Assembly: GCA_049697055.1 (NCBI GenBank)
Contig: JBAVVA010000020.1
Location: 219-64,218 of the forward strand
Direction of reading: 5' to 3'
Source: Candidatus Aminicenantales bacterium
Lineage (GTDB): Bacteria; Acidobacteriota; Aminicenantia; Aminicenantales; JAFGAV01
DNA: 64,000 nucleotides
Shown here in pieces: positions 13,397 through 43,694 of this stretch (its first letter is position 1; every line of letters starts with the position of its first letter). The notes under the pieces were generated by a model. The model saw nothing but the letters and a program-made list of their open reading frames with translations, searched no databases and was not told the origin of the DNA. The translations under genes were made by a program, and so were the position numbers.

Positions 13397-13400
13397 CGGT

Positions 13401-15011: not shown

Positions 15012-15017
15012 ATCCGG

Positions 15018-16703: not shown

Positions 16704-19602
16704 GATATTTTTTTTGCATAATGGGTTCAATTTTTTGGATTTGATACGATGAACAAACGTCTCACCTCCCTGGCCATCCCTCTCATCCTCATTCTCCTCG
16801 GCCTGGGAGGGTTCAATATCTATCGCCGCGTCACTTGGAAAGAACCGACGGACGGAGTGCAGTGGGCGGAACGGTCCACCGGCCTCATCGCGGTCAAGGT
16901 CATCAGAGACAGCCCGGCCTATCTGTCCGGGATCAAACTGGGCGACATCCTGTTCAAGATCAACGGCAATCCGGTCAAGAACCGAGCCGACCAGGTTAAG
17001 CTGCTGTGGGTGATCTACCAAACGGGCCAGAAGGCTATCTACGAGATCGGAAGGGAAGGGCAGCCTCCCCTGTCCCCTTCCTTCTATCTGGCCGTCAAAG
17101 GCACGGCTTTGAGCTATTATTATCTGGCCCTGGTGGGGCTCACCGCCTTCGTCATCGGACTTGTCGTCCTGTTCAGCGCGAAATCCCCTTTGACCCTGCC
17201 CTACATTTATTTCTATCTGGCCTCCCTCTGCTTGTATGCCATGTATATCTTCTCTCCCACCGGCCAGCTCGACACATTCGACAGCCTCTTCTTCTGGCTG
17301 GATAAGCTGGCCTTCCTGTTCTTTCCGCCCCTTCTCTTCCACTACTTCAGCATCTTCCCCCAACGGAAGAGGTTTCTAAAGCGCCTGCCCGCCCTCCCCA
17401 TCGTCTTCTACATCCCCGCCCTGCTCCTGCTGGCCGGCCAGGCAGCCCTATTCCTCCCCTGGTTCCAGGGCCTGGAGTCGGGGCGGATGCTGGACCTTTA
17501 CGGCGGGCTGGATAAGATCGGGCTTCTCCACTTCTGCGCTTTCGCCCTGCTGACCATCGGCACGACTTATCACAGCGCCCGCCGCACCTCGAGCGTCCTG
17601 GTCCGCAAGCAGTACACCTGGATCGCTTACGGCCTGGGCATCGGCACCATCCCCTTCCTGGCCTTGGACGCCATCCCCCACCTTGTGGGCCGGGTGCCCA
17701 CGGGCACCGGCGAGCTGACCATCCTCTTTCAGGCGCTCATCCCATTGACCGTGGCCTATTCCATCTCTCGGCATAAAATCATGGATTTCGAGATCGTCCT
17801 TAAAAAGGCCGCCACCCTGGCTTTTTCCTACTTCGTCATCGCCAGCCTCTACCTGGTAGTCAGCTCCCAGACGAGATTTTTCTCCGAAAACCGGCTGAAC
17901 GTGGTCATCCTGGGAGTGCTGGCCATCGTCCTGGGGGCCACGCTTTTCGGCCCGCTGAAAAAGCTCTTTCAGTCCATTCTCGACCGAGTCTTTTATAGGC
18001 GCAGCTACAAGTACCGAAAAACGCTTCTATTCATCAGTCAGGAGTTGAGCCGGGAGCGCAACCTTCAGCAGCTCAGCCAGCGGCTGCTGGAACTCATCGC
18101 CAACGCCCTATCCTTGAAAGGCATCGCCCTGCTGCTGACCGAGGAGAAAGTGCCCCATGCTTTCTCCCTCCTCCAGGCCAGGGGAGAATTCCCTCCCCTG
18201 CCCTCCCGGATCATCCTCGACCCGGACCTCTTCCAGTCCTTCAAGGAATCGGAGCATTTGTCCTACTACGCCTTCCCCGACCGGCGCGACCTTCGCTTCC
18301 GCCTGGAGAAACTATCGGTGTGGGGCTTCTTTCAGTTCATGCCCCTCAAGGTCGAGGACAAGTTCATCGGCTGCTTGGCCATGAGCAAAAAAACGAATGC
18401 CGCCTACCTCACCAGCGAGGACTGGGAGCTGCTGACTACCATCTCCTACCCGGTGGCCTTGGCCCTGGAGAACGCCTATCTCTACGACCAGGCCAGCCTG
18501 CGGACCATGGAAATGGAACGGCTCAAGGATTACAGCGAGAACATCATCGAAAGCCTGACCGTGGGCGTGGCCGTCCTCGACCAGGAGGGAAAAATCATCG
18601 GCTGGAACCGGGTCCTGGAAGAGACCTTCCTCCGCCGGAAGGACAGCGTCCTGGGGCAGAGCCTGTCGGCCATGATCGGTGAGACGAACTTCTCGGCCAT
18701 ATTCCTCCCCGACACCCAGCAGGAGTACCAACTGCTGAGCGAGATCCGCATGGACATCCGTCCCGGCTTGACCAAGATCTTCGACATCGCCAAAACCCCT
18801 CTCCTGGACAACCGGCTCAACCCCTACGGCACGATCATCGTCTTCGAGGACATCACCGACAAGATCATGCTTCAGCAGCAGCTGATAACCTCGGAGAAAC
18901 TGGCCTCCATCGGGCTGCTGTCGGCCGGCGTGGCTCACGAGATCAACACGCCCTTGACCGGCATCTCCAGCTACGTGCAAATGCTGCAGAAAAGGCTGAC
19001 CGATCCCCATTTCGCCCAGATCCTGGAGAAAATAGAGGCCCAGACCGACCGGGTGGCACGGATCATCAAAAACCTGCTCAACTTCGCCCGGAACCCCTCC
19101 GGGATCGCCTTCAGCCGGGTCAACCTCATCGACAACCTGAAGGAAATCCTGGCCCTCATCGAGTATAAACTGAAGGCCATGAACATCCGGCTGGAATTCA
19201 ACTCCGCGCCGCTGCGGCCCATCTGGGCTCAAGGCGAGCGGCTGCAGCAGGTCTTCATCAACATCATCCTCAACGCCCTGGACGCCATGCCCGAGGGCGG
19301 CATCCTGCGCCTCGACATCAGTCAGCAGAACAGCGAGGCCCTGGTGCGCATCGCCGATACGGGCACGGGCATCAAGAAAGACCACCTGCCTCGGATCTTC
19401 GACCCCTTCTTCACCACTAAGGGTCTGGGCAAGGGAACCGGGCTGGGGCTGTCCATCAGCTATGCCATCATTAAAGAACACGAGGGTAGGATCACCGTGG
19501 AGAGCCTGGAGGGCAAAGGCTCGACCTTCAGCGTGGTGCTGCCCATGGACTTGGACGTCCGACGCCGGCATCCGGAAAACTCTCGCCCTCAAGGAACAAA
19601 CC

Positions 19603-20991
<1,389 letters not shown>

Positions 20992-24608: not shown

Positions 24609-25052
24609 TTACACCAGCACCCGCCGCTCTTCCTTGACCGTATTCAGCACGAGGTGGGTGACGCTGCGGTCCACGTTGGGCAGCGACAGCATTTTTTTAA
24701 TGAAGGCGTTGAGGTCATCCCGGCTGCGGAAACGGCCGATGACCAGGGAATCCCATTCGCCGGTGATGTCATAGACGGCGCTGACCCGGGGGTCCTCGCC
24801 AATACGCTTTTGCGTTTCGAGCAGCTTCCCTTTGGAGATGCGCAGGGCAATGATGGCCGTCAGGTCCAGGCCGAAAGCGGCGGCATTGACCACGGGAATA
24901 TAGCCCTGGACGGCGCCCGTGCTCTCCATCTGCTTCACTTTATGGATAACGGAGGTGACCGAGGTGCCCGCTGCCTTGGCGATCTCGCGGAAGCTCTGAC
25001 GGGCGTTGACATTCATTATACCGATGATCTTCCGGTCAAGGTCGTCGATCAT
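24609..25052 (-). CDS. lrp: Lrp/AsnC-family transcriptional regulator
   Basis: N-terminal HTH 'LDRKIIGIMNVNARQSFREIAKAAGTS', C-terminal RAM domain; divergent from glnA. Confidence 0.85.
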   Translation of the reverse strand: MIDDLDRKIIGIMNVNARQSFREIAKAAGTSVTSVIHKVKQMESTGAVQGYIPVVNAAAFGLDLTAIIALRISKGKLLETQKRIGEDPRVSAVYDITGEWDSLVIGRFRSRDDLNAFIKKMLSLPNVDRSVTHLVLNTVKEERRVLV

Positions 25053-25210
25053 GGGCTCCTCCTTGATCTATTGAACTTATTTTTACGTTATTTGATGTCA
25101 ATTGTCAATAAATAAGATTTTTAGCTTGACATTTGACTTTTATTAATTTATATTTTGCTACAATAAGCATGGCCCAAGATAGAGCTTCATATAAAAAAGG
25201 AGGCCCGCTC
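25053..25210. promoter_or_regulatory. AT-rich divergent lrp/glnA control region with direct repeats TTGTCAAT-TGTCAATA and TTGACATTTGAC
   Basis: Visibly AT-rich relative to flanks; repeats read directly; RBS aaaaaggagg before glnA ATG. Confidence 0.4.
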
Positions 25211-26614
25211 ATGACCCCCACGGCCAAAACGTCCAAGCCCTTCGGCTTCAAGTCCGAAGAGGATGTGCTGAGGTACGTCCGGACTCCGGCTCACAATATC
25301 GAATTCATCAGGGTGATATTCCCCGATATCCTGGGCCGGCCCATGGACTTCACCTTTCCCCGCGAAGAGTTGGAGTCGGCCTTCCGGGAGGGGAAAGGCT
25401 TCGACGGATCCTCCATCGAGGGGTTCGTCCGCATCGAAGAAAGCGACCTGGTCATCCGGCCGGAAGCCCGCACCTTCCGCGTCCTGCCCTGGGAATACGC
25501 CGGCTTCCAGCCGGACACCCGCTGGCGGGAAGGCGTCATGTTCGGAGACATTCTGACCCCGGAGGGGAGGCCCTACGAGGCCGACACGCGCCGGATTCTC
25601 CGAGAGGCCTTGAAAAAGGCTAAAACGGAATTCGGGGTTGATGACTTCAAGGTGGGGCCCGAGCTCGAATTCTTTTTCTTCCCCTCCAATAAAGAAGCCC
25701 GTCCCCTGGACGAAGGCGGCTACTTCTTTTCCGGCCACCACGGCGAGGTCCGCAAGGAAATCCAACTCCTGCTGAAGAAAATGGGTATCGCCTCCGAGTA
25801 CGATCATCACGAAGTGGCCCACGGCCAGCACGAGATTGATCTGAGGTACGGCGGGGCGCTGGACATGGCCGACATCGGGATGCTCTTCCGCTACATGGTG
25901 AAGAAAGTGGCCCGCATGCACGGCCTGTATGCCACCTTCATGCCCAAACCCCTTAACGGCCATAACGGCAGCGGCATGCACGTCCACCAGTCGCTGTGGC
26001 GCGGAGGCAAAAATATTTTCTTCGACCCCAAAGACCGTTACCACCTCTCGGCTACGGCCCGCCACTATGTGGCCGGTCTGATGACCTATGCCCGGGAAAT
26101 TTCCTCCGTGCTCAGCCAGTGGGTCAATTCCTACAAGCGCCTGATCGAGGGCTACGAGGCGCCGGTTTACATCGCCTGGGGCCAGCGCAACCGCTCGGCC
26201 TACATCCGAGTGCCCCAGTACCAGCCGGGCAAAGAGCACGCCACCCGCATTGAACTGCGCTGCCCGGACCCGGGCTGCAACCTCTACCTGGCCCTGACGG
26301 TGATGCTGGCCGCCGGGCTGCGGGGCCTAAAGGACAAGTCTCCCCTGGCCTCCTCGATCGAGGAAAACATTTATCATATGAGCAATGCCCGCCAGAAACA
26401 GTTCGCCATAAAAACCCTGCCGCGCAACCTGGAGGAGGCGATCAAGCTCACCGAGAAGAGTGACCTGGTCCGGGGGGCGCTGGGCGAGGTCCTTTTTCAG
26501 AAATTCCTGGCCAACAAACGGGAGGAGATCGAGGAGTACAATCAGAACGTATCCGGCGAATATGAAAAGCAGGTCAGCGACTACGAAGTCCAGAAATACA
26601 TGGTCTTTCTCTGA
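25211..26614 (+). CDS. glnA: Glutamine synthetase type I
   Basis: ATG 25211 after RBS aaaaggagg; 'KPLNGHNGSGMHVHQSLW' ATP-binding signature, 'GFDGSSIEGF', 'DPGCNLYLAL'. Confidence 0.9.
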   Translation: MTPTAKTSKPFGFKSEEDVLRYVRTPAHNIEFIRVIFPDILGRPMDFTFPREELESAFREGKGFDGSSIEGFVRIEESDLVIRPEARTFRVLPWEYAGFQPDTRWREGVMFGDILTPEGRPYEADTRRILREALKKAKTEFGVDDFKVGPELEFFFFPSNKEARPLDEGGYFFSGHHGEVRKEIQLLLKKMGIASEYDHHEVAHGQHEIDLRYGGALDMADIGMLFRYMVKKVARMHGLYATFMPKPLNGHNGSGMHVHQSLWRGGKNIFFDPKDRYHLSATARHYVAGLMTYAREISSVLSQWVNSYKRLIEGYEAPVYIAWGQRNRSAYIRVPQYQPGKEHATRIELRCPDPGCNLYLALTVMLAAGLRGLKDKSPLASSIEENIYHMSNARQKQFAIKTLPRNLEEAIKLTEKSDLVRGALGEVLFQKFLANKREEIEEYNQNVSGEYEKQVSDYEVQKYMVFL

Positions 26615-26815
26615 TTATAGAGTCCATTAAGTCGTCCGCTGTTTTCACCATCTCCTCCACGGCGGGGGGAGGACTGTCGGTGGAAAAATAAATAATCAAG
26701 ACAAAATATCCCAGCCTCATGATGGAGTTCCAAGCCGGGATCAGAAAATGGGAATATAGGAGTCAATAATCCCCCGGCTAAAACAAGGGGAATGCCGCAA
26801 GGTCCGGCCCTGCGC

Positions 26816-26845
26816 TTGACAAGCCGGAAAAAACTCTGATATAAG
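26816..26845 (+). promoter_or_regulatory. Near-consensus sigma70 promoter (TTGACA - 18 nt - TATAAG with TGn extension) for the nuoE-like/GOGAT operon
   Basis: 'cTTGACAagccggaaaaaactcTGaTATAAGttt' read directly; leaves ~225-nt 5' leader before the first CDS. Confidence 0.5.
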
Positions 26846-27074
26846 TTTGAGTTCTTTTATAGGTTGAGTTCGTATTTATCGGTTGAGAAGAGGAGTCATA
26901 CATTCTTAGCCTAGCGGTTTCTCCGCACCTTCAGGCGGGGGGAAGCGGCTCTTTCTCCGGCCTGAAATCAGCCTTCTCTGTTCGATTTCCAGCCCGGGCT
27001 CTATTCCCTCTGGCCCCCAGCCTCTGCCGCAGGGGGAATCAAGCTTGAGCCATATTGCCGTGGGAGGGATAGCG

Positions 27075-27548
27075 GTGCACGTCGAAACACAAAAAGTTAA
27101 GAAAATCCTGGCCGAGCATAAGAACCAGAAAAAAGCGCTCATCCCCATCCTCCAGGACATCCAAGCCGAATACAATTATCTTCCCCCCGAGGCCTTGAAG
27201 ATCGTCTCCCAAACCCTGGCCCTTCCCTTGATTGATGTGGTCGGTGTGGCCACCTTTTACCGGGCTTTCAGCTTAAAGCCTCGGGGCCAGAATGTGGTCA
27301 CGGTCTGCCTGGGAACGGCCTGTCACGTGAGAGGGGGGCCGAAAATTCTCGATGAATTTGAAAAAAAGTTGAACATCAAAGCTGGCGAAACGACAAAAGA
27401 CAATCACTTTACCCTGGAAATCGTCAACTGCCTGGGCGCCTGTGCCCTGGGTCCCATTACCGTCATCAATGGAAATTATTTCGGGCAGATGAAGATCAAA
27501 AACGTTGACCGCCTGATCAAGAAATTCGGCCCGGCCAAAAGGAGTTGA
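27075..27548 (+). CDS. NuoE/HoxE-like thioredoxin-fold [2Fe-2S] subunit (24-kDa subunit family)
   Basis: GTG 27075 with RBS gggaggga 5 nt upstream (TTG 27045 is an alternative start); 'ALIPILQDIQAEYNYLP', Cys ligands 'CLGTAC...CLGAC'. Confidence 0.8.
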   Translation: MHVETQKVKKILAEHKNQKKALIPILQDIQAEYNYLPPEALKIVSQTLALPLIDVVGVATFYRAFSLKPRGQNVVTVCLGTACHVRGGPKILDEFEKKLNIKAGETTKDNHFTLEIVNCLGACALGPITVINGNYFGQMKIKNVDRLIKKFGPAKRS

Positions 27549-30500
27549 TGCCCCTAATGAAACCAACAGTGGATTTTGAAAAATTAAAAGAAATCAGGGC
27601 TGAAATTCTAAAGGATAGAAAAAAACGCAAGAGGACGATCACTGTTTGCGGAGGAACGGGGTGCCATGCCTATGGGTGCCTCAAGGTGGCCCAAGCCTTC
27701 CAGCGGGAAATCAAAAAGCAACGACTTCAAAATTCTGTCGAGGTCAGAACCACCGGCTGTCATGGCTTCTGCGAGAGGGGACCGATCGTCGTGATTCAGC
27801 CCGAGGGGATCTTCTACCAAAGGTTAAAACTGAAGGACGTCAAAGAGGTCATTTCCAAAACAATTAAAAACAAAAAAATAATCGACCGGCTCTTATATGT
27901 GGATCCGGAGACGAACAAGAAAATCGTTTATGAGAAGGCCGTCCCCTTTTATAAAAAGCAAAAACGCATTATTTTCGGCCACAACGGCCTCATCGATCCT
28001 ACAGAAATAAAGGATTATATCGCGGTCAACGGTTATTCCGCCCTGTCCAAAGTCTTGAGTCGAATGACCCCCCCGGAAGTTATTGAAGAAATAAAAAATT
28101 CCGGACTCAGGGGACGCGGGGGGGCGGGCTTTCCCACGGGGTCCAAATGGGAAGTCACGGCCAAGGCGCCAAGCCCGGTCAAGTATATTGTCTGCAACTG
28201 CGACGAAGGCGATCCCGGAGCCTATATGGATCGAAGCTTGTTGGAAGGAAATCCCCACAGTGTCCTGGAAGGCATGCTGATTGGAGCCTTTGCCATAGGG
28301 GCCCAGGAGGGATACGTTTATGTCCGGGCTGAATATCCCATTGCCGTAGAAAACATTTCCATCGCCATTGAACAGGCCAGGAAATACAACCTGCTGGGGA
28401 ATAATATCTTGGGGTCCGATTTCAGTTTCGATGTTTTCGTCTCCAAAGGGGCGGGCGCTTTTGTGTCCGGGGAGGAGACAGCCCTTTTGGCCAGTATTGA
28501 AGGCAAAATTGGGGTCCCCCAACAAAGGCCGCCCTATCCGGCCCAAAAAGGACTGCGGGGAAAGCCGACCAATATTAATAATGTAGAGACATGGGCGAAC
28601 GTGCCCTTCATCATCAATAAAGGCGCTTCCTGGTATTCTCAAATCGGGACCAATGGAAGCAAGGGGACCAAGATATTTTCTCTGGTGGGGAAAATCAACA
28701 ACACCGGCTTGGTCGAAGTGCCCATGGGAATGACCCTTAGGGAAATCATCTTTGATATAGGCGGAGGAATTCCAGAAGGGAAAAAATTCAAAGCCGTCCA
28801 GACCGGAGGACCCTCCGGGGGATGCATTCCCCAAGAACTCATTGATTTGCCCATCGACTATGAAAGCCTGGCCAAGGCCGGCTCGATCATGGGCTCGGGC
28901 GGCATGATCGTCATGGACGAGAACACCTGTATGGTGGACGTGGCCAAGTATTTCCTCAACTTCCTCCGTGACGAGTCCTGCGGCAAATGCGTTTCCTGCC
29001 GCGAAGGCACCCAGCGAATGTGGGAGATCGTTAAGAACATCACCGACGGCCGGGCCAAGATGGAAGACCTGGCACTCCTGGAGGAACTGGCCGGCGCGGT
29101 CAAGGACGCCTCCCTGTGCGGATTGGGCCAGACGGCGGCCAACCCGGTGTTGTCCACGCTCCGCTATTTCCGCCACGAGTACGAGACGCACCTTAAGCAG
29201 ATGCGCTGCCCGGCTTTGGTCTGCAAGGAGATCGTCGGGTCTCCCTGCCAGTATATCTGCCCTGCCGACCAGGAAGCCTCGACCTACATCGCCCTGATCG
29301 CCCGGGGCGACCTGGCGGAAGCCTATCGCATCATTCGCAAGGACAATCCCCTGCCCAGCGTCTGCGGCCGGGTTTGCAACCATCCCTGCGAGAAAGTCTG
29401 CCGGGCGAGCGAGATGGGCGAGCCCATCGCCATCCGCGCCCTCAAGCGCTTCGTCCTGGACTGGGCGGCTTCCCACAACTTGAAGCCCTCGCTCCCCTCC
29501 CGTGAATTGAAGAGCGAGAAGGTGGCCGTGGTAGGCGCCGGGCCGGCCGGCTTGTCCGCCGCCTACATTCTTAGCCTGAAGGGCTACCCGGTAACGGTCT
29601 ATGAGGCCTCTCCGGTCGCCGGCGGCTGGCTGGCTCTCGGCATCCCCGAGCACCGGCTGCCCCGCCAGGCCCTCCAGGCCGACCTGGACCATATCCGGAA
29701 GGCCGGGGTGACCATAAAAACCAACACCGTCCTGGGACGGGACATCACCGTCTCCGGTCTGTTCAGCCAGGGGTTCAAGGCGGTGTTCATCGCCACCGGA
29801 GCCCACAAGTCGATGAAGCTGGAAATAGCGGGCGAGGAAGCCCGGGGCGTGCTCAAGGGGACCGAATACCTGAAAAAAATCAACCTGGGCCAGAAGGCGG
29901 AGCTGGGCCGCCGGGTCGCCGTTATCGGCGGCGGCAATACAGCCATCGACGCCGCCCGGGCGGCGGTGCGCGACCCTGCCTGCCAAAAAGTCATAATCCT
30001 CTATCGCCGGACGCGCGAGGAGATGCCGGCCTTCTCCGAGGAAGTGGAGGCGGCCATCGAGGAAGGGGTGGACATCAGGTTCCTGGCGGCCCCCGTTAAA
30101 GTCCTGACCGAGGGAGGCCGGGTCATCGGCCTGGAGTGTATCCGCATGAAGCTGGGAGACAAAGACGAGAGCGGCCGGCGGAAACCGGTGCCCCTCCCCG
30201 GCTCGGAGTTCAAGGTGAAGCTGGACACGGTCATCGCCGCCATCGGCGAAAGAGCCGACGCCGCTTCTTTCACCAAGGGTGAGTCCATCGACATCAGCCA
30301 GTGGGAGACGATCGTAACCGACCCGGAGACTCTGGCCACCAACCGGCCGGGCGTCTTCGCCGGAGGCGACGTGGCCACCGGGCCGCGGACGGTTGTGGAG
30401 GCCATCGGCCAAGGCAAGCTCGCGGCAGAATCCATGGCCCACTATCTGGAAGGCGTTCAGCCGGTGCGCGAGTACAAGCTCAATCGGCCGTCGCTGTACG

Positions 30501-30706
30501 TCGAGCCGATGGAACTCTCCGAAGAAGAGACGGCTAAAGCTTCCCGGCCGAAGATTCCTCGTCTGACGGTCAAAGACAGACACCTTTCCTTCCGCGAGGT
30601 CATCCAGGGGTTGAACGAGGCGCAAGCCGTGCGCGAAGCGCGGCGCTGCCTGCGCTGCGACCTGGAGACGGAAGACGGCAAGAAAGCCATAGGAAAGAAC
30701 ACATGA
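27545..30706 (+). CDS. Fusion protein: NuoE-like [2Fe-2S] domain + NuoF-like NADH/FMN/[4Fe-4S] module + GltD-like FAD/NAD(P) oxidoreductase (glutamate synthase small-subunit / NfnB / SudA-like)
   Basis: 'TVCGGTGCHAYGC...TTGCHGFCERGP'; NuoF 'GRGGAGFPTGSKW', 'GAGAFVSGEETALLASIEG', 'ESCGKCVSCREG'; GltD part two [4Fe-4S] Cys clusters, 'VAVVGAGPAGLSAAY', 'VAVIGGGNTAIDAAR'. Confidence 0.85.
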   Translation: MMPLMKPTVDFEKLKEIRAEILKDRKKRKRTITVCGGTGCHAYGCLKVAQAFQREIKKQRLQNSVEVRTTGCHGFCERGPIVVIQPEGIFYQRLKLKDVKEVISKTIKNKKIIDRLLYVDPETNKKIVYEKAVPFYKKQKRIIFGHNGLIDPTEIKDYIAVNGYSALSKVLSRMTPPEVIEEIKNSGLRGRGGAGFPTGSKWEVTAKAPSPVKYIVCNCDEGDPGAYMDRSLLEGNPHSVLEGMLIGAFAIGAQEGYVYVRAEYPIAVENISIAIEQARKYNLLGNNILGSDFSFDVFVSKGAGAFVSGEETALLASIEGKIGVPQQRPPYPAQKGLRGKPTNINNVETWANVPFIINKGASWYSQIGTNGSKGTKIFSLVGKINNTGLVEVPMGMTLREIIFDIGGGIPEGKKFKAVQTGGPSGGCIPQELIDLPIDYESLAKAGSIMGSGGMIVMDENTCMVDVAKYFLNFLRDESCGKCVSCREGTQRMWEIVKNITDGRAKMEDLALLEELAGAVKDASLCGLGQTAANPVLSTLRYFRHEYETHLKQMRCPALVCKEIVGSPCQYICPADQEASTYIALIARGDLAEAYRIIRKDNPLPSVCGRVCNHPCEKVCRASEMGEPIAIRALKRFVLDWAASHNLKPSLPSRELKSEKVAVVGAGPAGLSAAYILSLKGYPVTVYEASPVAGGWLALGIPEHRLPRQALQADLDHIRKAGVTIKTNTVLGRDITVSGLFSQGFKAVFIATGAHKSMKLEIAGEEARGVLKGTEYLKKINLGQKAELGRRVAVIGGGNTAIDAARAAVRDPACQKVIILYRRTREEMPAFSEEVEAAIEEGVDIRFLAAPVKVLTEGGRVIGLECIRMKLGDKDESGRRKPVPLPGSEFKVKLDTVIAAIGERADAASFTKGESIDISQWETIVTDPETLATNRPGVFAGGDVATGPRTVVEAIGQGKLAAESMAHYLEGVQPVREYKLNRPSLYVEPMELSEEETAKASRPKIPRLTVKDRHLSFREVIQGLNEAQAVREARRCLRCDLETEDGKKAIGKNT

Positions 30707-31395
30707 TCACCATCACCCTCAACGGTGTCGAAGTCCAGGTTGAGGAGCATTGGTCCGTCCTCGAGGCGACTAAGTTCTACGGCCTGGCCATTCCGACGCT
30801 CTGCTATCACGAGGGGCTGAGCCCCTTCGGCGGCTGCCGCCTGTGCCTGGTCGAGATCGGGGAAGCGCCCCGGACCAAGCTCATTTCCTCCTGCACTTAC
30901 CGGGTCGAGCCCGGCCTCATCGTCAGGACGGACACCCGGCGGGTAGTCGAAGCCCGGCGGATGATGATCGAGCTGATGCTGTCCACGGCGCCTTATTCCA
31001 AGGTCCTCCAGGACCTGGCCTCCAAGTACGGGGTAACCCGCCAGAGGTTCAAGCCGCGCAACGACGAATGCATCCTGTGCGGCCTGTGCGTCCGGATTTG
31101 CGCCGAGCAGATGGACGGACGGGCCATCGGCTTCCAGAACCGGGGCCATAAGAAGAAGGTGTCCACGCCTTTCGACAGGCGCTCCGAGGAATGCCGGCTG
31201 TGCGGCGCCTGCATGTACATCTGCCCGGCCTGCCAGCTCCGCTGCCAGGGGCCTCAGGCCGACACGGCCCTGTGCAACGCCTGCCTGACCATGGAGCCCA
31301 CCTGCCTGGAGCAATATGACGAGCTCCGCTGCTGGATGTACGACGCCGGACGGTGCGGGACCTGTGTCCAGCCCAACCCGGATCAAAGCAAATAG
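30703..31395 (+). CDS. NuoG/HydA N-terminal-like ferredoxin ([2Fe-2S] + His-ligated [4Fe-4S] + 2x[4Fe-4S])
   Basis: 'ITLNGVEVQVEE...CYHEGLSPFGGCRLCLVEI', 'CILCGLCVRIC', 'CRLCGACMYICPAC'. Confidence 0.75.
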   Translation: MITITLNGVEVQVEEHWSVLEATKFYGLAIPTLCYHEGLSPFGGCRLCLVEIGEAPRTKLISSCTYRVEPGLIVRTDTRRVVEARRMMIELMLSTAPYSKVLQDLASKYGVTRQRFKPRNDECILCGLCVRICAEQMDGRAIGFQNRGHKKKVSTPFDRRSEECRLCGACMYICPACQLRCQGPQADTALCNACLTMEPTCLEQYDELRCWMYDAGRCGTCVQPNPDQSK

Positions 31396-31463
31396 AGCCA
31401 GGAAGCAAGCGATGCCCACGACTGGCTTGATCATAGACGGACACCAATAATAAGGAGGTCATC

Positions 31464-33041
31464 ATGTCTTATACGAAACTCAATCGCAGCGCAGCGACCC
31501 TGACCAAGAACAGAACGGAAGGCTCGATCAGCCCCTTCAGCGGGATGTGCGTCACCTGCGTGGACGGCTGCATCGGGATGTGCGAGATCGGCAAATCCGC
31601 CTACCGGGGCCCGGAAGTCCTCTATCCCCAGCCCTTCGGCCTGATCACCGCGGCCTCGGAGAAAGAATATCCCTTCGACCTGTCCCATTTCAGCATCATG
31701 GGCACGGCCGTCGGCGCCCACGGCTGCGCGGCCGATTCCGACGTGGCCACCTTCGAAAAGGTCACCGTGGAGACCAAGATCGGCCGGGACAAGTCCATCA
31801 AGCTCAAGCTGCCCTTCGTCCTGGGCGGGATGGGCTCGACCAACGTAGCCAAGCAGAATTGGGAGGGGATCGGCATCGGGGCGGCCATTTCCGGCGTCAT
31901 CCTGACCGTGGGCGAGAACGTCTGCGCCATGGACGAAGAATCCGAGATCAAGAACGGCCGGGTGGTCCGCTCCCCGGATATGGAAATGCGGGTCAAGAGC
32001 TTCCAGAATTGGTATGACGGCTACGGCACGGTCGTCGTCCAGGCCAACGTGGAGGACACCCGGCTGGGAGTTCAGGAATACGCCATCAACAAGCTGGGCG
32101 TCCAGGCCGTCGAGCTCAAGTGGGGCCAGGGGGCCAAGGACATCGGCGGCGAGGTCAAGATCAAGAGCCTGAAAAAGGCCCAGGAATTGCGCGGGCGGGG
32201 CTACATCGTCCTGCCCGACCCCGAGGACCCCAACGTCATCAAAGCCTTCGAGAAGGGCAGCTTCAAAGAATTCGAGCGGCACTCCCGGCTGGGCATGGTC
32301 GAGGAGGAAAGTTTCATGAAGCGCGTGGAGGAGCTCCGCCGGGCCGGGGCCAAGCACGTCTTCCTCAAGACCGGCGCCTACCGTCCGGCCGACCTGGCCC
32401 GCGCGGTCAAATACGCCTCCCAGGCTAAAATCGACATGCTGACCGTGGACGGCGCAGGCGGCGGCACGGGCATGAGTCCCTGGCGGATGATGAACGAGTG
32501 GGGCATCCCCTCGGTCGAGATCTGGTCGCTGACCCACCAGTATGAGGATAAACTGGCCCAGCGGGGCGAGTACGTGCCCGACACCGTTTTCGGCGGGGGC
32601 ATCACCTTTGAGGACCAGATCTTCAAAGCCCTGGCCCTGGGCTCACCCTACGTCAAGGCGGTGGGCATGGCCCGCGGCCCGCTGGCCTCGGCCATGGTGG
32701 GCAAGACCATCGGCAAGCGGATCGCCGAGAGCCAGATCCCGGTTTACGTCGAGCGGTTCGGCTATTCGGTCGAGGAGATTTTCGTCACCGCCCCCGAACT
32801 CAAGCACAAATACGGCGACCGGTTCGCCCAATTGCCCACCGGAGCCATCGGCGTCTACACCTACTTCCGGCGGCTGAGCCAGGGCCTGCGCCAGCTCATG
32901 GCCGGCAACCGCAAGTTCGGACTGGAGCACATCACCCGCGACGACATCGCCTCCCTGACCAAGGAAGCGGCCGACATCTCCGGCATCTCTTATGTCCTGG
33001 ACGTGGACAAAGACGAGGTGGAGAAGATACTGAAGGGCTGA
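31464..33041 (+). CDS. Glutamate synthase large-subunit FMN/[3Fe-4S] synthase domain as stand-alone protein (archaeal-type GltB)
   Basis: RBS taaggagg; 'CVTCVDGCIGMCE' Cys cluster, 'GGMGSTN', 'DGAGGGTGMSPW' FMN-domain motifs. Confidence 0.8.
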   Translation: MSYTKLNRSAATLTKNRTEGSISPFSGMCVTCVDGCIGMCEIGKSAYRGPEVLYPQPFGLITAASEKEYPFDLSHFSIMGTAVGAHGCAADSDVATFEKVTVETKIGRDKSIKLKLPFVLGGMGSTNVAKQNWEGIGIGAAISGVILTVGENVCAMDEESEIKNGRVVRSPDMEMRVKSFQNWYDGYGTVVVQANVEDTRLGVQEYAINKLGVQAVELKWGQGAKDIGGEVKIKSLKKAQELRGRGYIVLPDPEDPNVIKAFEKGSFKEFERHSRLGMVEEESFMKRVEELRRAGAKHVFLKTGAYRPADLARAVKYASQAKIDMLTVDGAGGGTGMSPWRMMNEWGIPSVEIWSLTHQYEDKLAQRGEYVPDTVFGGGITFEDQIFKALALGSPYVKAVGMARGPLASAMVGKTIGKRIAESQIPVYVERFGYSVEEIFVTAPELKHKYGDRFAQLPTGAIGVYTYFRRLSQGLRQLMAGNRKFGLEHITRDDIASLTKEAADISGISYVLDVDKDEVEKILKG

Positions 33042-33057
33042 CGCGCCGCAACAGGAT

Positions 33058-33098
33058 AAAAAGGGCTCCTCGCTATAAAAACGAGGAGCCCTTTTTAT
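33058..33098 (+). terminator. Rho-independent terminator after the GOGAT-like operon
   Basis: 'AAAAGGGCTCCTCG-ctataaaaa-CGAGGAGCCCTTTTTAT' perfect 13-bp stem + T-run. Confidence 0.8.
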
Positions 33099-33119
33099 AT
33101 AAATCATTTCTTTTCGGTT

Positions 33120-33284
33120 GCATCTCCAAACGTTTGATATATGGGGAGGGGTGGCACGGCGCCAGTTCCCGCCCGCCCGAAGCGCATGGTGGTGGGTGGG
33201 CGGGTCTTGCGCGAGGACGGACGGGAACGCGCCGTGACAGGACCCCTCCTCTTTTTAAATGCTAGATCATACATTTGGAGATGC
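33120..33284. repeat. Hairpin-forming repeat element copy A (terminal GCATCTCC...GGAGATGC, core GGGGAGGGGTGGCACGGCG / GCCGTGACAGGACCCCTCCTCT)
   Basis: Shares 8-bp inverted termini and ~20-nt core arms with the copy at 40780-40913; variable apical region is internally complementary. Confidence 0.6.
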
Positions 33285-33364
33285 AACCTTTCTTTTCACC
33301 ATTTTTTTCACCATCCCTTTACCGCCCGAAGGCGATATGCTATAAATAGCTGCGGTTTGCTGAC

Positions 33365-35857: not shown

Positions 35858-36392
35858 AGACATCCTGGAGGCGCTCATCTTTATTTCGGTCGAGCCCCTG
35901 ACCCTGGACCGCATCAAGGAAGTCCTGGCCGACACGCCGGAGGAGGAGCTGCGCCGGGCGTTGGACGAGCTGGCTCAGGAATACGGCCGGCCCGGCCGGG
36001 GCATCAGTCTCCAGAGCGCGGCGGGAGGCTATCTCTTCACCACCAAATCGGAATGCGACCCCTGGGTGCGGCGCCTGCTCCAGATCGAGCGCAAGAGCAG
36101 GCTGTCCCGGGCCGCGGTGGAGACACTGGCCGTCATCGCCTATCATCAGCCGGCCACCCAGGCCGAGATCCAGGCCATCCGCGGGGTGGACTCCTCCTAT
36201 ACGGTCCACACCCTGCTGGAGAAAAAACTGGTAAAGATCAGCGGCCGGAAGAAGGCGCCGGGCAGTCCCCTGCTCTACAAGACAACCGATAGGTTCTTGA
36301 CTTATTTCGGCCTCAACGACCTGAGCGAACTGCCTTCGGTTGAAGAGGTGGCCAAAATGCTGGAAGAAGAAGAGCAGCATGCGGAGAAGTAA
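35841..36392 (+). CDS. scpB: Segregation and condensation protein B
   Basis: 'LEALIFISVEPLTLDRI', winged-helix 'AEIQAIRGVDSSYTVHTLLEKKLV'. Confidence 0.85.
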   Translation: MDSQLKDILEALIFISVEPLTLDRIKEVLADTPEEELRRALDELAQEYGRPGRGISLQSAAGGYLFTTKSECDPWVRRLLQIERKSRLSRAAVETLAVIAYHQPATQAEIQAIRGVDSSYTVHTLLEKKLVKISGRKKAPGSPLLYKTTDRFLTYFGLNDLSELPSVEEVAKMLEEEEQHAEK

Positions 36393-36435
36393 GCATACCG
36401 CGCCACCCCTTTACGATTACAGGGAATCACGGAAA

Positions 36436-38169
36436 ATGGGATGCTTCCCGAGGAAAATTCGCGATTTGTTTTTCTGTATTTTAATATTATCGGCCGGGTC
36501 GGGAAACTCTCCTGCCGTCATCTCTGCTCAGGAAGCCCGGCCGCCTTCCGACCGCCATCAACCCTATAATTTCACGGGCTGGCAGGGCATGGTCGTGGCG
36601 GCCAACCCCCTGGCCGCCGAGGCGGGCCTGGAGATGCTCAAGGAAGGCGGCAACGCCGTGGACGCCGCGCTGGCCACCTCCTTCGCCCTGAACGCGGCCG
36701 AGCCCTTCGCCTCAGGCCTGGGCGGCGGAGGCTGGATGCTCATCTATCTGGCCAAGGAAAACAAGATCACCGTCATAGACTACCGGGAGCGGACGCCCGC
36801 CGCGGCCTCCCCCCGGATGTTTGAGGAGAACGGTGAAGTCAAACAGGAATGGCGGGAAGCCCACGGATTGGCCGTCGCCGTTCCCGGCACCCCGGCCGGC
36901 TGGGAATACGCCTTGAAGCACTACGGCACCAAGACCTTAGCCGAGGTCAGCCGCCGGGCCGTGGAACTGGCCGAGCAGGGCTATCCGGTAAGCCCCACCT
37001 TCGCCGGCATCAACAAGGACGAGTACGAGAAGCTGCTGGCCAACGCCGGAGAGACGACCTGCTACCTGAACCGGGGCGTTCCCTATGAGACGGGCGAAAT
37101 CTTCAAAAACCCGGACCTGGCCCGCACCTTCAAGCTCCTGGCTGAAAAAGGGATGGGAGAGTTTTACCGGGGCGAACTGGCCCGTAAGATCGTTGAGGCG
37201 GTGAAGGCCAAGGGAGGGATTCTGACCCTGGAAGACCTGGCCTCCTTCCAGGCCAGGGAAGTGAAGCCGCTGCGGGGCGTCTATAAGGATTATGTCCTTT
37301 ATACCATCCCCCCGCCCAGCTCGGGCGGGCTCCATGCCATCCAGCTCTTGAACATCCTGGAAGCCTGGCCGCTGCGCGACTGGGGCCAAAACTCTCCGGC
37401 CACCATCCACCACTTCAGCGAGGCCCTGCGCTTCGTGTTCGCCGACCGGGAGCGCTACCTGGGCGATCCGGATTTCGTATCGATTCCAACCCAGGCCATC
37501 TGCGAAAAGGATTATGCCCGCCGCCTCGCTTCTCTCATCAAACCCGACCGGGTGCTGGGAGATTATCCCTCCGGCACGTTTGAGAAGCACAGCCCCACCG
37601 GCAACACGACTCACCTCTGCGTGGTGGACCGGGAGGGCAATATCGTCTCCCAGACTCAATCGATCAACCTCTTCTTCGGCTCGGGCATCATCCCCGAAGG
37701 AACGGGCTTCCTGCTGAACGACATCATGGACGATTTCTCCGAGGACCCCGAGTCTCTGAACGCCCCCCGGCCCGGCCGCCGGCCGCTGAGCTCCATGGCC
37801 CCGCTTATTCTATTTAATAAGGACAGGCCCTACCTTGTTCTCGGCTCCCCGGGCGGCACCCGCATTTTTTCCAGCCTGGTGCAGATCATCCTCAACGTGG
37901 TGGAGTTCGGCCTGTCCCTCGACGAAGCCATCGAGGCTCCGCGTTTCTTCTCTGATTCGGTCAAGGGCAAAGCCCGGCCGGTGGCCCTCGAGTCGCGCAT
38001 CCCGGAAGCGACGCGGGCGGCCCTGGAGAAACTGGGCCACCAAATTAGCTTGAAGGAAGCTTATGACAAGTACTTCGGCGGAGCCCAGGGCTTGCTGATC
38101 CTGCGCGACAAACGGCTCATCCTGGGCGGCGCCGACTCCCGCCGCGACGGCTCAGGCGCCGGCTACTAG
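36436..38169 (+). CDS. ggt: Gamma-glutamyltranspeptidase
   Basis: Signal peptide 'FFCILILSAGSG'; autoprocessing 'GNTTHLCVVD', 'GSPGGTRI', 'LNDIMDDF'. Confidence 0.85.
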   Translation: MGCFPRKIRDLFFCILILSAGSGNSPAVISAQEARPPSDRHQPYNFTGWQGMVVAANPLAAEAGLEMLKEGGNAVDAALATSFALNAAEPFASGLGGGGWMLIYLAKENKITVIDYRERTPAAASPRMFEENGEVKQEWREAHGLAVAVPGTPAGWEYALKHYGTKTLAEVSRRAVELAEQGYPVSPTFAGINKDEYEKLLANAGETTCYLNRGVPYETGEIFKNPDLARTFKLLAEKGMGEFYRGELARKIVEAVKAKGGILTLEDLASFQAREVKPLRGVYKDYVLYTIPPPSSGGLHAIQLLNILEAWPLRDWGQNSPATIHHFSEALRFVFADRERYLGDPDFVSIPTQAICEKDYARRLASLIKPDRVLGDYPSGTFEKHSPTGNTTHLCVVDREGNIVSQTQSINLFFGSGIIPEGTGFLLNDIMDDFSEDPESLNAPRPGRRPLSSMAPLILFNKDRPYLVLGSPGGTRIFSSLVQIILNVVEFGLSLDEAIEAPRFFSDSVKGKARPVALESRIPEATRAALEKLGHQISLKEAYDKYFGGAQGLLILRDKRLILGGADSRRDGSGAGY

Positions 38170-41595: not shown

Positions 41596-41605
41596 ACGAG
41601 AAGGA

Positions 41606-42166: not shown

Positions 42167-42193
42167 TCTGAAAATTTATCGCCGACAGCCATA

Positions 42194-43687: not shown

Positions 43688-43694
43688 GAGGAGG

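Follow-up and report, generated by a model that had tools for sequence, protein, structure and literature searches.

A HydB-type iron-sulfur core paired with a divergent glutamate-synthase-like FMN protein in Candidatus Aminicenantes and other anaerobes

A HydB-type iron-sulfur core is paired with a divergent FMN protein of the glutamate-synthase type (hereafter D) in a single operon of a Candidatus Aminicenantes genome, and the same pairing is conserved in more than 100 anaerobe genomes and metagenome contigs. ORF and domain analysis places the operon, with its four plus-strand ORFs, between positions 26816 and 33098 of the 64-kb stretch of DNA analysed here (the window); the first three genes encode BfuC, BfuB and a short BfuA and the fourth encodes D. 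We regard it as an evenly balanced possibility that the four products form one soluble multi-subunit iron-sulfur flavoenzyme, a Bfu-type complex in which the glutamate-synthase-like D would be the catalytic subunit. Literature searches found no description of a hydrogenase-type core paired with a glutamate-synthase-like enzyme.

Operon structure

Gene pairs 1/2 and 2/3 each overlap by 4 nt, whilst gene 4 starts 68 nt past gene 3 and has an AAGGAGG ribosome-binding site in front of it. A sigma-70-like promoter can be recognised by eye on the plus strand at 26816-26845, with TTGACA as its -35 hexamer (26816-26821), an 18-nt spacer and an extended -10 of the form TG-n-TATAAG (26837-26845); it was missed by a consensus scanner that demands T at position 6, where the second hexamer here has G. 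There is no match to a sigma-54 -24/-12 element in the intergenic region 26615-27045. The 5' leader of ~200 nt (26846-27044, plus strand) holds no recognised RNA element, an Rfam search of it giving zero matches both at the gathering threshold and at E<=1. At the far end is an intrinsic terminator (33061-33098, plus strand), again identified by eye, with a perfect 10-bp G+C-rich stem (33064-33092), a 9-nt loop and a T-run; the loop exceeds the limit of the scanner. The genes overlap or lie close together and are flanked by a promoter-like site on one side and a strong terminator on the other, which bears out the single operon proposed in the preliminary description of this DNA. Directly upstream is glnA, encoding a type I glutamine synthetase (25133-26614, plus strand; PF00120, PF03951, TIGR00653), and divergent from it on the minus strand is a gene for a Lrp/AsnC-family regulator (24609-25052; PF01037, PF13404), both as previously placed.

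The electron-input module

Gene 1, which is bfuC or nuoE-like (27045-27548, plus strand), encodes a thioredoxin-like [2Fe-2S] protein whose listed length is 167 aa; translation more likely begins at the GTG at 27075, which is preceded by a GGGAGGG ribosome-binding site. Its product matches PF01257 (2Fe-2S_thioredx) with 170 bits together with NuoE/HoxE-like NCBIfam models, in keeping with the NuoE-like protein first proposed, and Cys88, 93, 129 and 133 fall in the NuoE pattern, giving the single [2Fe-2S] cluster (C1) of the Bfu family.

Gene 2 (27545-30706, plus strand) encodes a BfuB-GltD fusion of 1053 aa, delimited by Pfam domains, PDB matches and comparison with the BfuB C-terminus of L002, a fully syntenic Aminicenantes relative. 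The Pfam order runs from a partial 2Fe-2S_thioredx (residues 24-105) through Complex1_51K, SLBB and NADH_4Fe-4S (465-549) to Fer4_20 (553-644) and Pyr_redox_2 (659-957). Residues 32-564 match solved HydB/NfnB chains of bifurcating enzymes at 630-760 bits, with 762 bits for 7t2r_B, the HydB chain of a NiFe hydrogenase complex, and residues 566-1039 match the GltD/NfnL-like parts of 9bov_A and 9n5u_A (NfnA); Pfam order and PDB matches agree on the fusion of NuoE domain, NuoF and GltD that had been suggested. They also show that the 1053-aa protein, with its NuoF module, differs from an ordinary NfnB/SudA.

The N-terminal [2Fe-2S] domain of gene 2 (27614-27859, plus strand; aa 24-105, PF01257 partial) has Cys35, 40, 72 and 76 and occupies the "B2" position; B2 is an extra BfuB cluster that is missing from non-bifurcating homologues (PMC9304861). 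It is followed by a NuoF-like FMN/NADH domain and [4Fe-4S] "B1" site (27998-29191, plus strand; aa 152-549; CGKCVSC...C525; PF01512, PF10589), which matches TIGR01959 (nuoF_fam) with 493 bits and aligns near full-length with solved HydB chains, so that the FMN/NADH site and the NuoF-type [4Fe-4S] cluster of Bfu proteins are both present.

The HydB alignment ends at residue 564 of the 1053, equivalent to position 540 of 597 in 7t2r_B. The C-terminal ferredoxin-like domain of BfuB (two CX2CX2CX3CP motifs; B3/B4), which is kept as a 2x[4Fe-4S] domain in L002, is missing from gene 2 and a GltD-like Fer4_20 stands there instead. This GltD/NfnL-like module (29201-30451, plus strand) comprises PF14691 (Fer4_20, aa 553-644, two [4Fe-4S]) and PF07992, has the FAD Rossmann motif VAVVGAGPAG and the NAD(P)H Rossmann motif VAVIGGGNTA...YRR, and is matched by E. 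coli GltD in a phmmer search at E 4e-69; it has the two [4Fe-4S] clusters, FAD and NAD(P)H sites of GltD, but as a domain fused to BfuB and not as a free subunit. In the region of B5, the [2Fe-2S]/Zn site near the FMN of Bfu enzymes, a CPxxxC stretch (C555/C560) that may form part of the ligand set is shared with 7t2r_B, 7q4v_B and L002.

Gene 3 (30703-31395, plus strand) encodes a short BfuA-type ferredoxin of 230 aa with PF13510 (Fer2_4) and PF12838 (4Fe-4S dicluster), and its NCBIfam matches are to HoxU and the N-terminal parts of NuoG and hydrogenase A6, which accords with the NuoG/HydA-N-terminal-type ferredoxin recognised earlier. Besides an N-terminal [2Fe-2S] motif, the Cys map has CX2CX2CX3C twice and another eight Cys towards the C-terminus; the NuoG-type His-ligated 4Fe-4S domain has no match in gene 3, and residues 80-120 are without Cys or His. 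Domain search and Cys map revealed neither a catalytic nor a FAD domain in the short BfuA, which leaves D as the sole candidate for a catalytic module. By domain and PDB matches the subunit set is indeed the electron-input module of HydABC and other Bfu enzymes.

A divergent GltB2-like protein

Gene 4, or gene D (31464-33041, plus strand), encodes a divergent GltB2-like FMN TIM-barrel protein of 525 aa that is presumed to be the catalytic subunit. Its Pfam match is a partial one to PF01645 (Glu_synthase), with 61 bits over profile positions 185-308 of 369, and it has no match in NCBIfam; the AF2 model (pLDDT 86, pTM 0.90) has FMN TIM-barrels as its fold matches. Against a canonical archaeal-type GltB2, hhalign gave a probability of 97.2% over 283 columns with the key motifs aligned, VQVASGRFGV of GltB2 with VQxNVEDxRLGV of D, GQGAKPGIGGH with GQGAKDIGGE and RGGTGAAP with GGGTGMSP, the D-side residues of these motifs being invariant among 150 homologues. 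A phmmer search of D against E. coli GltB gave E 0.096, hhalign against the FMN domain of that protein reached 56% only, and no GltS chain was retrieved with the D profile from the PDB. These sequence comparisons make D most likely a diverged paralogue of archaeal-type GltB2 and no more than a distant relative of GltB.

Near its N-terminus D carries a motif of four Cys, C29-X2-C32-X3-C36-X3-C40 (31548-31583, plus strand), that is found in every one of 150 aligned homologues and is presumed to bind an Fe-S cluster that receives electrons. The CX5CX4C [3Fe-4S] motif of GltB, with its first Cys at 1127 in the E. coli protein, is absent from D, which is without Cys beyond residue 154. Gene 4 had been read as the FMN/[3Fe-4S] synthase domain of GltB; the assignment to the glutamate-synthase FMN-domain superfamily is supported, the [3Fe-4S] motif and the identity with GltB itself are not. 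Profile searches of each ORF recovered the NuoE, NuoF, Fer2_4 and GltD domains, with Glu_synthase only in part and the NuoG-type His-ligated domain not at all. D has an invariant signature of its own, E230 (Gln in GltB), RHSR272-275 and W340/M342/M343/E345/W346, and this could reflect another substrate. Neither Pfam nor the AF2 model revealed a pyridine-nucleotide-binding domain in D.

Conserved linkage and gene neighbourhood

Linkage was counted among the 103 related loci whose upstream sequence extends over 4.5 kb or more. D directly follows BfuC-BfuB-short BfuA in 99 of them (58 of 61 GTDB species loci and 41 of 42 metagenome loci), and the linked loci span bacterial phyla and archaea with D identities of 64-92%. 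This greatly strengthens the earlier idea that the module and D are wired together, and it is gene order that suggests D would bind the Bfu subunits. BfuB is a GltD fusion in 58 of the linked loci and canonical, with a ferredoxin-like C-terminus, in the other 41; the GltD fusion is therefore an optional and not a constant part of the system, ~40% of loci having a canonical BfuB. The fully syntenic relative L002 is one of the canonical type, and a further locus (L024) has canonical and GltD-fused modules in tandem before a single D. Another arrangement is seen in P0250, where a 4Fe-4S dicluster and FrhB N- and C-terminal domains are joined to a D-like domain with a Cys-rich motif and GQGAKPGMGGE. 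The fusion of this D-type homologue to an FrhB-like F420 module lends support to the view that D is an acceptor module whose donors can be exchanged.

The neighbourhood of D is rich in nitrogen genes. In the window and 17 other loci glnA adjoins the operon, a neighbourhood that synteny reveals to be kept in Aminicenantes and a few other lineages; 22 loci have glutamate dehydrogenase genes near D, at least nine have NrpR nearby, and sigma-54 response-regulator/kinase pairs lie upstream in ~20. Sensory-hydrogenase regulators also recur as neighbours. Across the related loci glnA, gdh, NrpR and aminotransferases turn up repeatedly beside D, and no other pathway recurs.

GATase_2 (PF00310), GltB central and GXGXG (PF01493) domains are encoded nowhere in the operon or the 64-kb window, which agrees with the lack of a nearby amidotransferase noted previously, and GATase_2 and GXGXG genes are missing from 159 of 160 related loci. 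The sole exception is an NC10 locus (L056) in which D, GATase_2, GXGXG and an aminotransferase stand in a row. In L085, a close NC10 relative, a GATase_2-GXGXG pair stands without an intervening GltB2, and D is not near that pair; in L086 the order is canonical, with GltB2 between GATase_2 and GXGXG. A glutaminase may be encoded elsewhere in the genome.

Comparison with known systems

BfuC and BfuB are likewise present in the Bfu family (HydABC, NiFe-HydABCSL, Fdh-, Wor- and Nfn-Bfu; Schut et al. 2022, PMC9304861), and a short Fe-S-only BfuA with a separate third-substrate subunit is the "Type 2/3" layout of that family. The canonical D-linked relatives also share the C-terminal 2x[4Fe-4S] ferredoxin-like domain, whereas the BfuB of the window has the GltD-like module instead. 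The Bfu substrates listed are H2, formate, NADP, F420, aldehydes, pyruvate, CO, benzoyl-CoA, quinone and H2O2 (PMC9304861); a GltB2-like FMN third-substrate subunit falls outside this list and the word "glutamate" is absent from the text of that paper and its supplement. Undiscovered third substrates are explicitly expected for the family (PMC9304861).

The same cofactor modules as here, a BfuBC core with a GltD/NfnL-like [4Fe-4S]x2/FAD/NADPH module and NuoG-N-type clusters, are found in NfnABC/Stn (PDB 9n5u; PMC11829005, PMC12018979, PMC10482914). In Nfn-Bfu, however, the NfnL/GltD-like module is fused to a long BfuA with a mid-potential cluster chain (NfnA, 963 aa), whereas in the operon it is the C-terminal part of BfuB, with BfuA as a protein of its own (230 aa); the operon furthermore has the extra conserved FMN subunit D, and the variant in the window is missing the ferredoxin-docking B3/B4 domain. 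A HydB-type subunit with a glutamate-synthase small-subunit-like domain is also known from archaeal hybrid [FeFe]/[NiFe] hydrogenases (Cell 2024, PMC11216029), where in these HydB-GltA(GltD) fusions the small-subunit-like domain was proposed as the site for a low-potential acceptor; those enzymes have hydrogenase catalytic subunits, but the operon here has none and has D instead.

With the glutamate synthases (GOGAT; bacterial GltBD and archaeal split GltB1/GltB2/GltB3) there is homology of D to GltB2 across the TIM barrel, including QGAK..GG and GGTGxSP, as well as a GltD-like module, an adjacent glnA and, in L056, a D orthologue followed by GltB1- and GltB3-type genes. D is nevertheless too divergent for sequence search to find it with GltB, its N-terminal motif is CX2CX3CX3C and not CX5CX4C, the amidotransferase, central and GXGXG domains are lacking from operon and window, and the donor would be a HydBC-type module. 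Fusions of the P0250 kind, FrhB-GltS fusions ("FGltS"), have been discussed as putative F420-dependent glutamate synthases (PMC9012536); they join a D-type domain to another kind of electron input, the donor being an F420H2-oxidising FrhB and not a Bfu core. As far as literature searches show, the FGltS fusions and all members of the D system are alike in being biochemically uncharacterised.

A proposed enzyme and its alternatives

In the complex that we propose, D would be the third-substrate module in place of a hydrogenase or formate dehydrogenase. NADH would be oxidised at the FMN of BfuB, and electrons would pass through the BfuB and BfuC clusters to the short BfuA ferredoxin, then to the N-terminal four-Cys cluster of D and finally to its FMN, which would reduce a 2-imino acid, most likely 2-iminoglutarate formed from 2-oxoglutarate and ammonia, to give glutamate. 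Such an enzyme may bifurcate or confurcate, and in the canonical relatives its second redox partner would be ferredoxin, docked on the C-terminal ferredoxin-like domain of BfuB. Ferredoxin docks at the B3/B4-bearing BfuB domain in NfnABC (PMC12018979), and this domain was counted in the invariant bifurcating core by Schut et al. (PMC9304861). Since the GltD module replaces the B3/B4 domain in the operon of the window, ferredoxin coupling is less certain there than in the canonical relatives, and the second partner would probably be NADPH, or ferredoxin through the GltD clusters. The 2-oxoglutarate+NH4+/glutamate couple lies at ~ -140 mV at standard conditions, and using ferredoxin to assist the reduction would therefore seem wasteful except where ammonium is very scarce.

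It is conceivable, if doubtful, that the same complex carries out other chemistry, with D reducing a different substrate, for instance some other 2-oxo or 2-imino acid, an enoate or a compound of isoprenoid type, and with the nitrogen genes nearby pointing to regulation or to a separate though related step. The weak, partial Pfam match and the lack of an NCBIfam model, the distinct invariant residues, the missing 3Fe-4S motif and the absence of glutaminase and GXGXG partners from 159 of 160 loci would all fit such a substrate; set against them are the hallmark GltB motifs (QGAK..GG, GGTGxSP and VQ...R.GV) that align with canonical GltB2 at 97%, neighbours that recur from nitrogen metabolism and from no other pathway, and the locus L056, which ties D to GltB1- and GltB3-type genes.

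That last locus could also be taken to mean that D is the GltB2 of a conventional glutamine-dependent split GOGAT, with GATase_2 (GltB1) and GXGXG (GltB3) encoded elsewhere and the Bfu/GltD proteins standing in for GltD or ferredoxin as donor, which we think unlikely. The L085 pair without GltB2 between its members, unlike canonical L086, would be consistent with this, as would the adjoining glnA in the window, glutamine synthetase needing a GOGAT partner for the assimilation cycle; yet the adjacency occurs in one of 160 loci only, D is away from the L085 pair, and the 64-kb window has neither gene.

It would seem very improbable that the operon encodes two enzymes, an Nfn-like NADH/NADPH(/ferredoxin) transhydrogenase made of BfuC, BfuB-GltD and BfuA and an independent D that merely uses its NADPH or reduced ferredoxin, as the NfnABC/Stn cofactor modules held by genes 1-3 (PMC11829005, PMC12018979) and the 68-nt gap before D, while genes 1-3 overlap, could suggest, but in the ~40% of loci where BfuB is without GltD and BfuA is only ~230 aa BfuABC alone would lack a third substrate, yet D still always adjoins it, and the invariant four-Cys motif of D, which has no pyridine-nucleotide-binding domain, suits electrons from Fe-S partners.

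Implications

As a Bfu-type complex with D as its catalytic subunit, the enzyme would couple glutamate formation, beside glutamine synthetase, to the cellular pools of NADH, ferredoxin and NADPH. If this is true, it would perhaps be an unrecognised route from cellular redox carriers to nitrogen assimilation.

Organisation of the operon

The operon (positions 26816-33098, forward strand) consists of four co-oriented ORFs, with 4-nt overlaps between genes 1 and 2 and between genes 2 and 3, and a 68-nt gap before gene 4, which has an AAGGAGG ribosome-binding site ahead of it. A promoter-like site at 26816-26845 (TTGACA, 18 nt, TG-n-TATAAG) was read by eye from the sequence and is omitted by a consensus promoter scanner because its -10 hexamer ends in G, while at the other end a terminator at 33061-33098 combines a perfect 10-bp G+C-rich hairpin with a T-run. 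Rfam detected no riboswitch or leader RNA, either in the 200-nt leader or in the rest of the window. The region ahead of the operon showed no sigma-54 promoter, even though sigma-54 regulators often neighbour the module in related loci. Directly upstream lies glnA, and a divergent Lrp/AsnC gene is found further upstream at 24609-25052.

The four-gene arrangement of NuoE-, NuoF- and NuoG-N-type proteins with GltD and GltB-related content set out in the preliminary description is real, with Pfam placing PF01257 in gene 1; a partial PF01257, Complex1_51K, SLBB, NADH_4Fe-4S, Fer4_20 and Pyr_redox_2, in that order, in gene 2; Fer2_4 and a 4Fe-4S dicluster domain in gene 3; and a partial PF01645 match of 61 bits in gene 4. 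The labelling of gene 4 as the [3Fe-4S] synthase domain of GltB was wrong, as its product lacks the GltB-type [3Fe-4S] motif. The earlier interpretation is partly right, and the finding is well delimited and far more general than the preliminary description could see. An ordinary NfnB/SudA or a canonical gltBD is ruled out by the NuoF module and by the divergence of the gene 4 product, hereafter D.

Two further features of the window were noted. Between the terminator and an M50 peptidase gene lies a near-perfect long hairpin of ~175 nt (33116-33290; arms GGTTGCATCTCCAAA... and ...TTTGGAGATGCAACC), with an RNA MFE of -100.4 kcal/mol (z = -7.4); it belongs to no Rfam family, the window holds no second copy of its arm sequence, and a related metagenome locus, L002, has a methyltransferase gene at its position. 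A MITE/REP-like insertion and a structured RNA are both conceivable. Unrelated to the operon is a type II secretion/type IV pilus-like cluster on the minus strand (8657-16226) encoding a secretin with a cohesin domain, a T2SSM-like protein, a T2SSE ATPase and T2SSF.

Gene D, a divergent relative of GltB2

D (31464-33041, 525 aa) is distant from GltB: E. coli GltB aligns to it with a phmmer E of 0.096, hhalign against the E. coli GltB FMN domain gives a probability of 56% confined to the FMN-phosphate region, and a 150-sequence D profile retrieved no GltS chain from the PDB, where both single-sequence and profile searches returned just chance de novo TIM barrels. There is no NCBIfam model for D, and exact-match lookups for the window protein and for a homologue, P0502, returned no record. 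Of 1.84 billion cluster representatives searched exhaustively, only 1083 matched at E<=1e-3, and D therefore forms a compact, distinct subfamily.

The AF2 model of D is an FMN TIM barrel (pLDDT 86, pTM 0.90), to which Foldseek matched alpha-hydroxy-acid oxidases, type-2 IPP isomerase and GltS with about equal scores, the best query TM-score (0.50) being that of GltS (1ofd, 1llw). For comparison with a canonical archaeal-type GltB2, the FMN synthase subunit of split GOGAT, we used a 503-aa protein from locus L086 with a full-length PF01645 match at 461 bits. Profile comparison with this protein gave a probability of 97.2% over 283 columns and aligned the GltS hallmark motifs, such that VQVASGRFGV, GQGAKPGIGGH and RGGTGAAP of GltB2 correspond to VQxNVEDxRLGV, GQGAKDIGGE and GGGTGMSP of D. 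Because these motifs align with GltB2, and because the D residues within them are invariant in 150 homologues, as is an N-terminal C29-X2-C32-X3-C36-X3-C40 motif, D is, judged on its sequence, a paralogue of GltB2 that has diverged and carries a presumed Fe-S site of its own.

In three loci the module is adjoined by a further D-like gene, a paralogue of 534-543 aa with a weak PF01645 match: L020:4084-5709 (Dethiobacter), L053:12177-13778 (an actinomycetotal MAG) and L061:10228-11856 (Altiarchaeales). The 800-aa protein P0250 from the representative library joins a 4Fe-4S dicluster and FrhB N- and C-terminal (F420-type) domains to a D-like domain, and is predicted to be an enzyme of the D type whose donor module is F420-linked.

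Electron-input proteins

The remaining three genes encode proteins of the Bfu family of HydABC-like electron-bifurcating enzymes (Schut et al. 2022, PMC9304861). Residues 32-564 of the 1053-aa BfuB align near end-to-end with the HydB chains of Bfu-type enzymes whose structures are solved, 7t2r_B (762 bits) being the best PDB match and 7q4v_B, 8a6t_B and the NfnB chain 9n5u_B also being found, and the protein has the Cys patterns of an N-terminal 2Fe-2S cluster (C35/40/72/76) and a NuoF-type 4Fe-4S cluster together with a conserved CPxxxC stretch. The alignment ends at position 540 of the 597 in 7t2r_B, leaving the C-terminal ~57 residues of that chain without a counterpart. At this fusion point canonical relatives, such as that of L002, have two CX2CX2CX3C motifs, and the window protein continues into Fer4_20, a FAD Rossmann fold and an NAD(P)H Rossmann fold with YRR, a GltD/NfnL-like module for which the PDB search ranked 9bov_A and the NfnA chain 9n5u_A highest. 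In cryo-EM work on NfnABC the low-potential path runs C1-B3/B4-ferredoxin, the docking site of ferredoxin lying between the C-terminal domain of BfuC and the ferredoxin-like domain of BfuB (PMC12018979); the window variant has therefore exchanged exactly that domain for an NADPH-type module.

The tail of the fusion protein (30644-30667, aa 1034-1041) reads ARRCLRCD and resembles the N-terminal Cys pair of the GltD Fer4_20 domain. This pair is absent where Fer4_20 starts at aa 553 (profile positions 22-111 only), and E. coli GltD residues 14-51 align weakly with BfuB aa 1014-1051, so that the tail looks like a possible circular permutation of cluster ligands.

Gene 1 has the NuoE Cys pattern of BfuC. 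Gene 3 encodes a 230-aa BfuA-like ferredoxin with one 2Fe-2S and two 4Fe-4S motifs and, towards its C-terminus, eight extra Cys, in which neither a His-ligated cluster motif nor a catalytic domain was found. The extra Cys (30703-31395; C177, 181, 191, 194, 201, 210, 218 and 221, within aa 177-221) may hold one or two more clusters or form a docking element for D.

Distribution and linkage of the Bfu-D module

The nearest homologues of D (83-95% identity) are from Candidatus Aminicenantes MAGs and metagenomes, and the JGI metagenome locus L002 shows full synteny with the window, running M1 peptidase, speH, glnA, the four genes, M50 peptidase, trpS, scpAB and gamma-glutamyltranspeptidase. Closed MAGs with the operon include CP070813, CP070766, CP070756 and CP070677, and homologues are also known from the cultured Calderihabitans maritimus and Caldicoprobacter algeriensis. 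Matching stretches number at least 592 in GTDB species genomes and at least 585 in a metagenome contig collection, with D 64-92% identical across Acidobacteriota (Aminicenantes), Zixibacteria, Planctomycetota, Chloroflexota, Bacteroidota, Bacillota, syntrophic Deltaproteobacteria, Thermoplasmata and Altiarchaeales. The GTDB loci analysed were the best 80 of the at least 592 (D identity 65-92%), and came from Aminicenantes, Zixibacteria, Planctomycetota, Dehalococcoidia, Bacteroidota/Ignavibacteria, Bacillota (Dethiobacter, Thermanaeromonas), Syntrophorhabdus, Smithella, Latescibacterota, Thermoplasmata, Methanobacteriota and Altiarchaeales. Such high conservation of D across phyla suggests that the Bfu-D system has a central function in anaerobes.

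Comparative genomics provides the strongest evidence for the link between Bfu and D. ORFs were called and searched with seed proteins, counting only loci whose upstream sequence extends for 4.5 kb or more: short BfuA and BfuB precede D in 58 of 61 GTDB loci, with BfuC upstream in 57, and in an independent set of 80 metagenome loci the linkage holds in 41 of 42. BfuB is fused to GltD in 33 of the 58 linked GTDB loci and canonical, with a C-terminal ferredoxin-like domain, in 25; the corresponding metagenome figures are 25 and 16. With no catalytic domain in the short BfuA and no site for a third substrate in canonical BfuB, D alone is left as a candidate catalytic partner; Schut et al. reasoned in the same way for Type 2/3 Bfu enzymes (PMC9304861).

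Both input variants occur in tandem before a single D in an Aminicenantes locus (L024:2417-11578), in the order BfuC and BfuB-GltD fusion, BfuC and canonical BfuB, two short BfuA genes and D, which suggests alternative donor modules serving one catalytic subunit.

Proposed reaction and alternatives

The best reading of the operon, held with moderate confidence, is a single Bfu-type complex in which D would reduce a 2-imino acid at FMN, the substrate probably being 2-iminoglutarate formed from 2-oxoglutarate and NH3. NADH would deliver electrons at BfuB, from where they would pass through BfuA to the N-terminal cluster of D; the second partner would be ferredoxin in canonical relatives and, in the window, probably NADPH through the GltD module. 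Each of these steps beyond domain content and gene linkage is one that we infer. The fusion of a D-type domain to an FrhB-like module in P0250 fits one acceptor module with interchangeable donors.

It would seem unlikely that D instead belongs to a glutamine-dependent split GOGAT whose remaining subunits have their genes in other parts of the genome. In favour of this is one NC10/Methylomirabilota locus (L056:2-5066), in which a D orthologue (67% identical), at the start of the contig, is followed by GATase_2 (372 aa), GXGXG (250 aa) and an aminotransferase; this is the sole locus among 160 in which GATase_2 and GXGXG adjoin D. In a close NC10 relative (L085) neither D nor GltB2 accompanies the GATase_2-GXGXG pair, L086 has the canonical GATase_2-GltB2-GXGXG arrangement, and a metagenome scan with the NC10 D for recurrence of D-GATase_2-GXGXG returned no close NC10 relatives, only the 80 further Bfu-linked loci of the metagenome set. 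As the preliminary description had stated, no amidotransferase is encoded nearby: the 64 kb hold no GATase_2, GltB central or GXGXG ORF, with E. coli GltB finding no match to any of these among all six-frame window ORFs and the NC10 GATase_2 and GXGXG proteins finding nothing in the window. That the operon encodes two independent enzymes, an Nfn-like transhydrogenase and D, is very improbable, as the canonical variant without any NADPH module still keeps D.

Within the reading of a single complex, it is possible, though doubtful in its full form, that the enzyme represents a new glutamate synthase class, a confurcating redox valve using NADH and reduced ferredoxin (NADPH if GltD-fused) for ammonia-dependent amination of 2-oxoglutarate with no glutaminase and no ATP. 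The 2-oxoglutarate+NH4+/glutamate couple has an E0' of about -140 mV, and by a Nernst estimate from this value, high glutamate together with micromolar NH4+ would bring it to roughly -320 to -350 mV. Other Bfu third substrates lie in this mid-potential range (Table 1, PMC9304861), and a confurcating enzyme could therefore assimilate ammonium, without ATP, where NAD(P)H-dependent GDH cannot. The glutamate-oxidising, bifurcating direction was set aside as a main role, since by our own estimate only extreme metabolite ratios would make the couple negative enough to reduce ferredoxin and NAD+.

Neighbouring genes and regulators

Among the 160 related loci of the combined GTDB and metagenome sets, neighbours include glutamate dehydrogenase (22 loci), glnA (17), the regulator NrpR, assigned via Pfam (at least 9), class I/II aminotransferase (5), a GAF histidine kinase (17) and a sigma-54 response regulator (23, mostly upstream). 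In many other phyla the kinase and sigma-54 regulator pair lies directly upstream of the module, sometimes accompanied by a small Cys-rich ORF of ~120 aa with no Pfam match; in the window a PDZ/GAF/PAS histidine kinase and a sigma-54-dependent response regulator are found ~6 kb upstream (16749-20991).

HydS-like sensory [FeFe]-hydrogenase genes are present in at least 7 loci (L001:2105-5786; L010, L013, L017, L096, L118 and L161); that of L001 lies upstream with DRTGG, HATPase and PHP-domain regulator genes (Pfam). The operon has no hydrogenase catalytic subunit. The HydS-like neighbours hint at H2-responsive regulation, and where sensory-hydrogenase regulators lie upstream the proposed confurcating enzyme, if it exists, could be an H2-responsive electron sink replacing proton reduction by HydABC.

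Downstream in the window (36340-38169 and 41588-44831), and syntenic in L002, are genes for gamma-glutamyltranspeptidase, DUF6305, a 497-aa ORF with no Pfam match, at whose position L002 has a DctM/DcuC-type transporter, and an AstE/AspA-like protein. Gamma-glutamyltranspeptidase is an Ntn hydrolase that can free ammonia or glutamate from gamma-glutamyl compounds, and these genes may be a glutamyl-compound utilisation cluster.

Significance

The Bfu family, Nfn-Bfu and HydB-GltA fusions have been described already (PMC9304861, PMC11829005, PMC12018979, PMC11216029). A Bfu core with a GltB2-like subunit is in neither the text nor the supplement of the Bfu classification paper (PMC9304861), and no description of a Bfu- or HydBC-linked glutamate synthase or GltB2-like subunit was found in the literature searched, an absence that is not proof. 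The system would be a Bfu enzyme whose catalytic module is new; it could equally be seen as a glutamate-synthase-like enzyme of new architecture. Its two natural BfuB variants, with a ferredoxin-like domain or a GltD module at the same position and sometimes in tandem, are a ready-made experiment on the Bfu low-potential branch. Questions are also raised as to how GS-GOGAT is closed in organisms with glnA and without a recognisable gltB, and whether ferredoxin-level reductant takes the place of ATP in ammonium assimilation. If D and the Bfu core are one enzyme, they would define a glutamate-synthase-like type that standard annotation misses, D having no NCBIfam model and just a partial Pfam match, and a nitrogen-assimilation reaction would join the Bfu third substrates; the proposed confurcating reaction, if true, would give anaerobes high-affinity ammonium assimilation.
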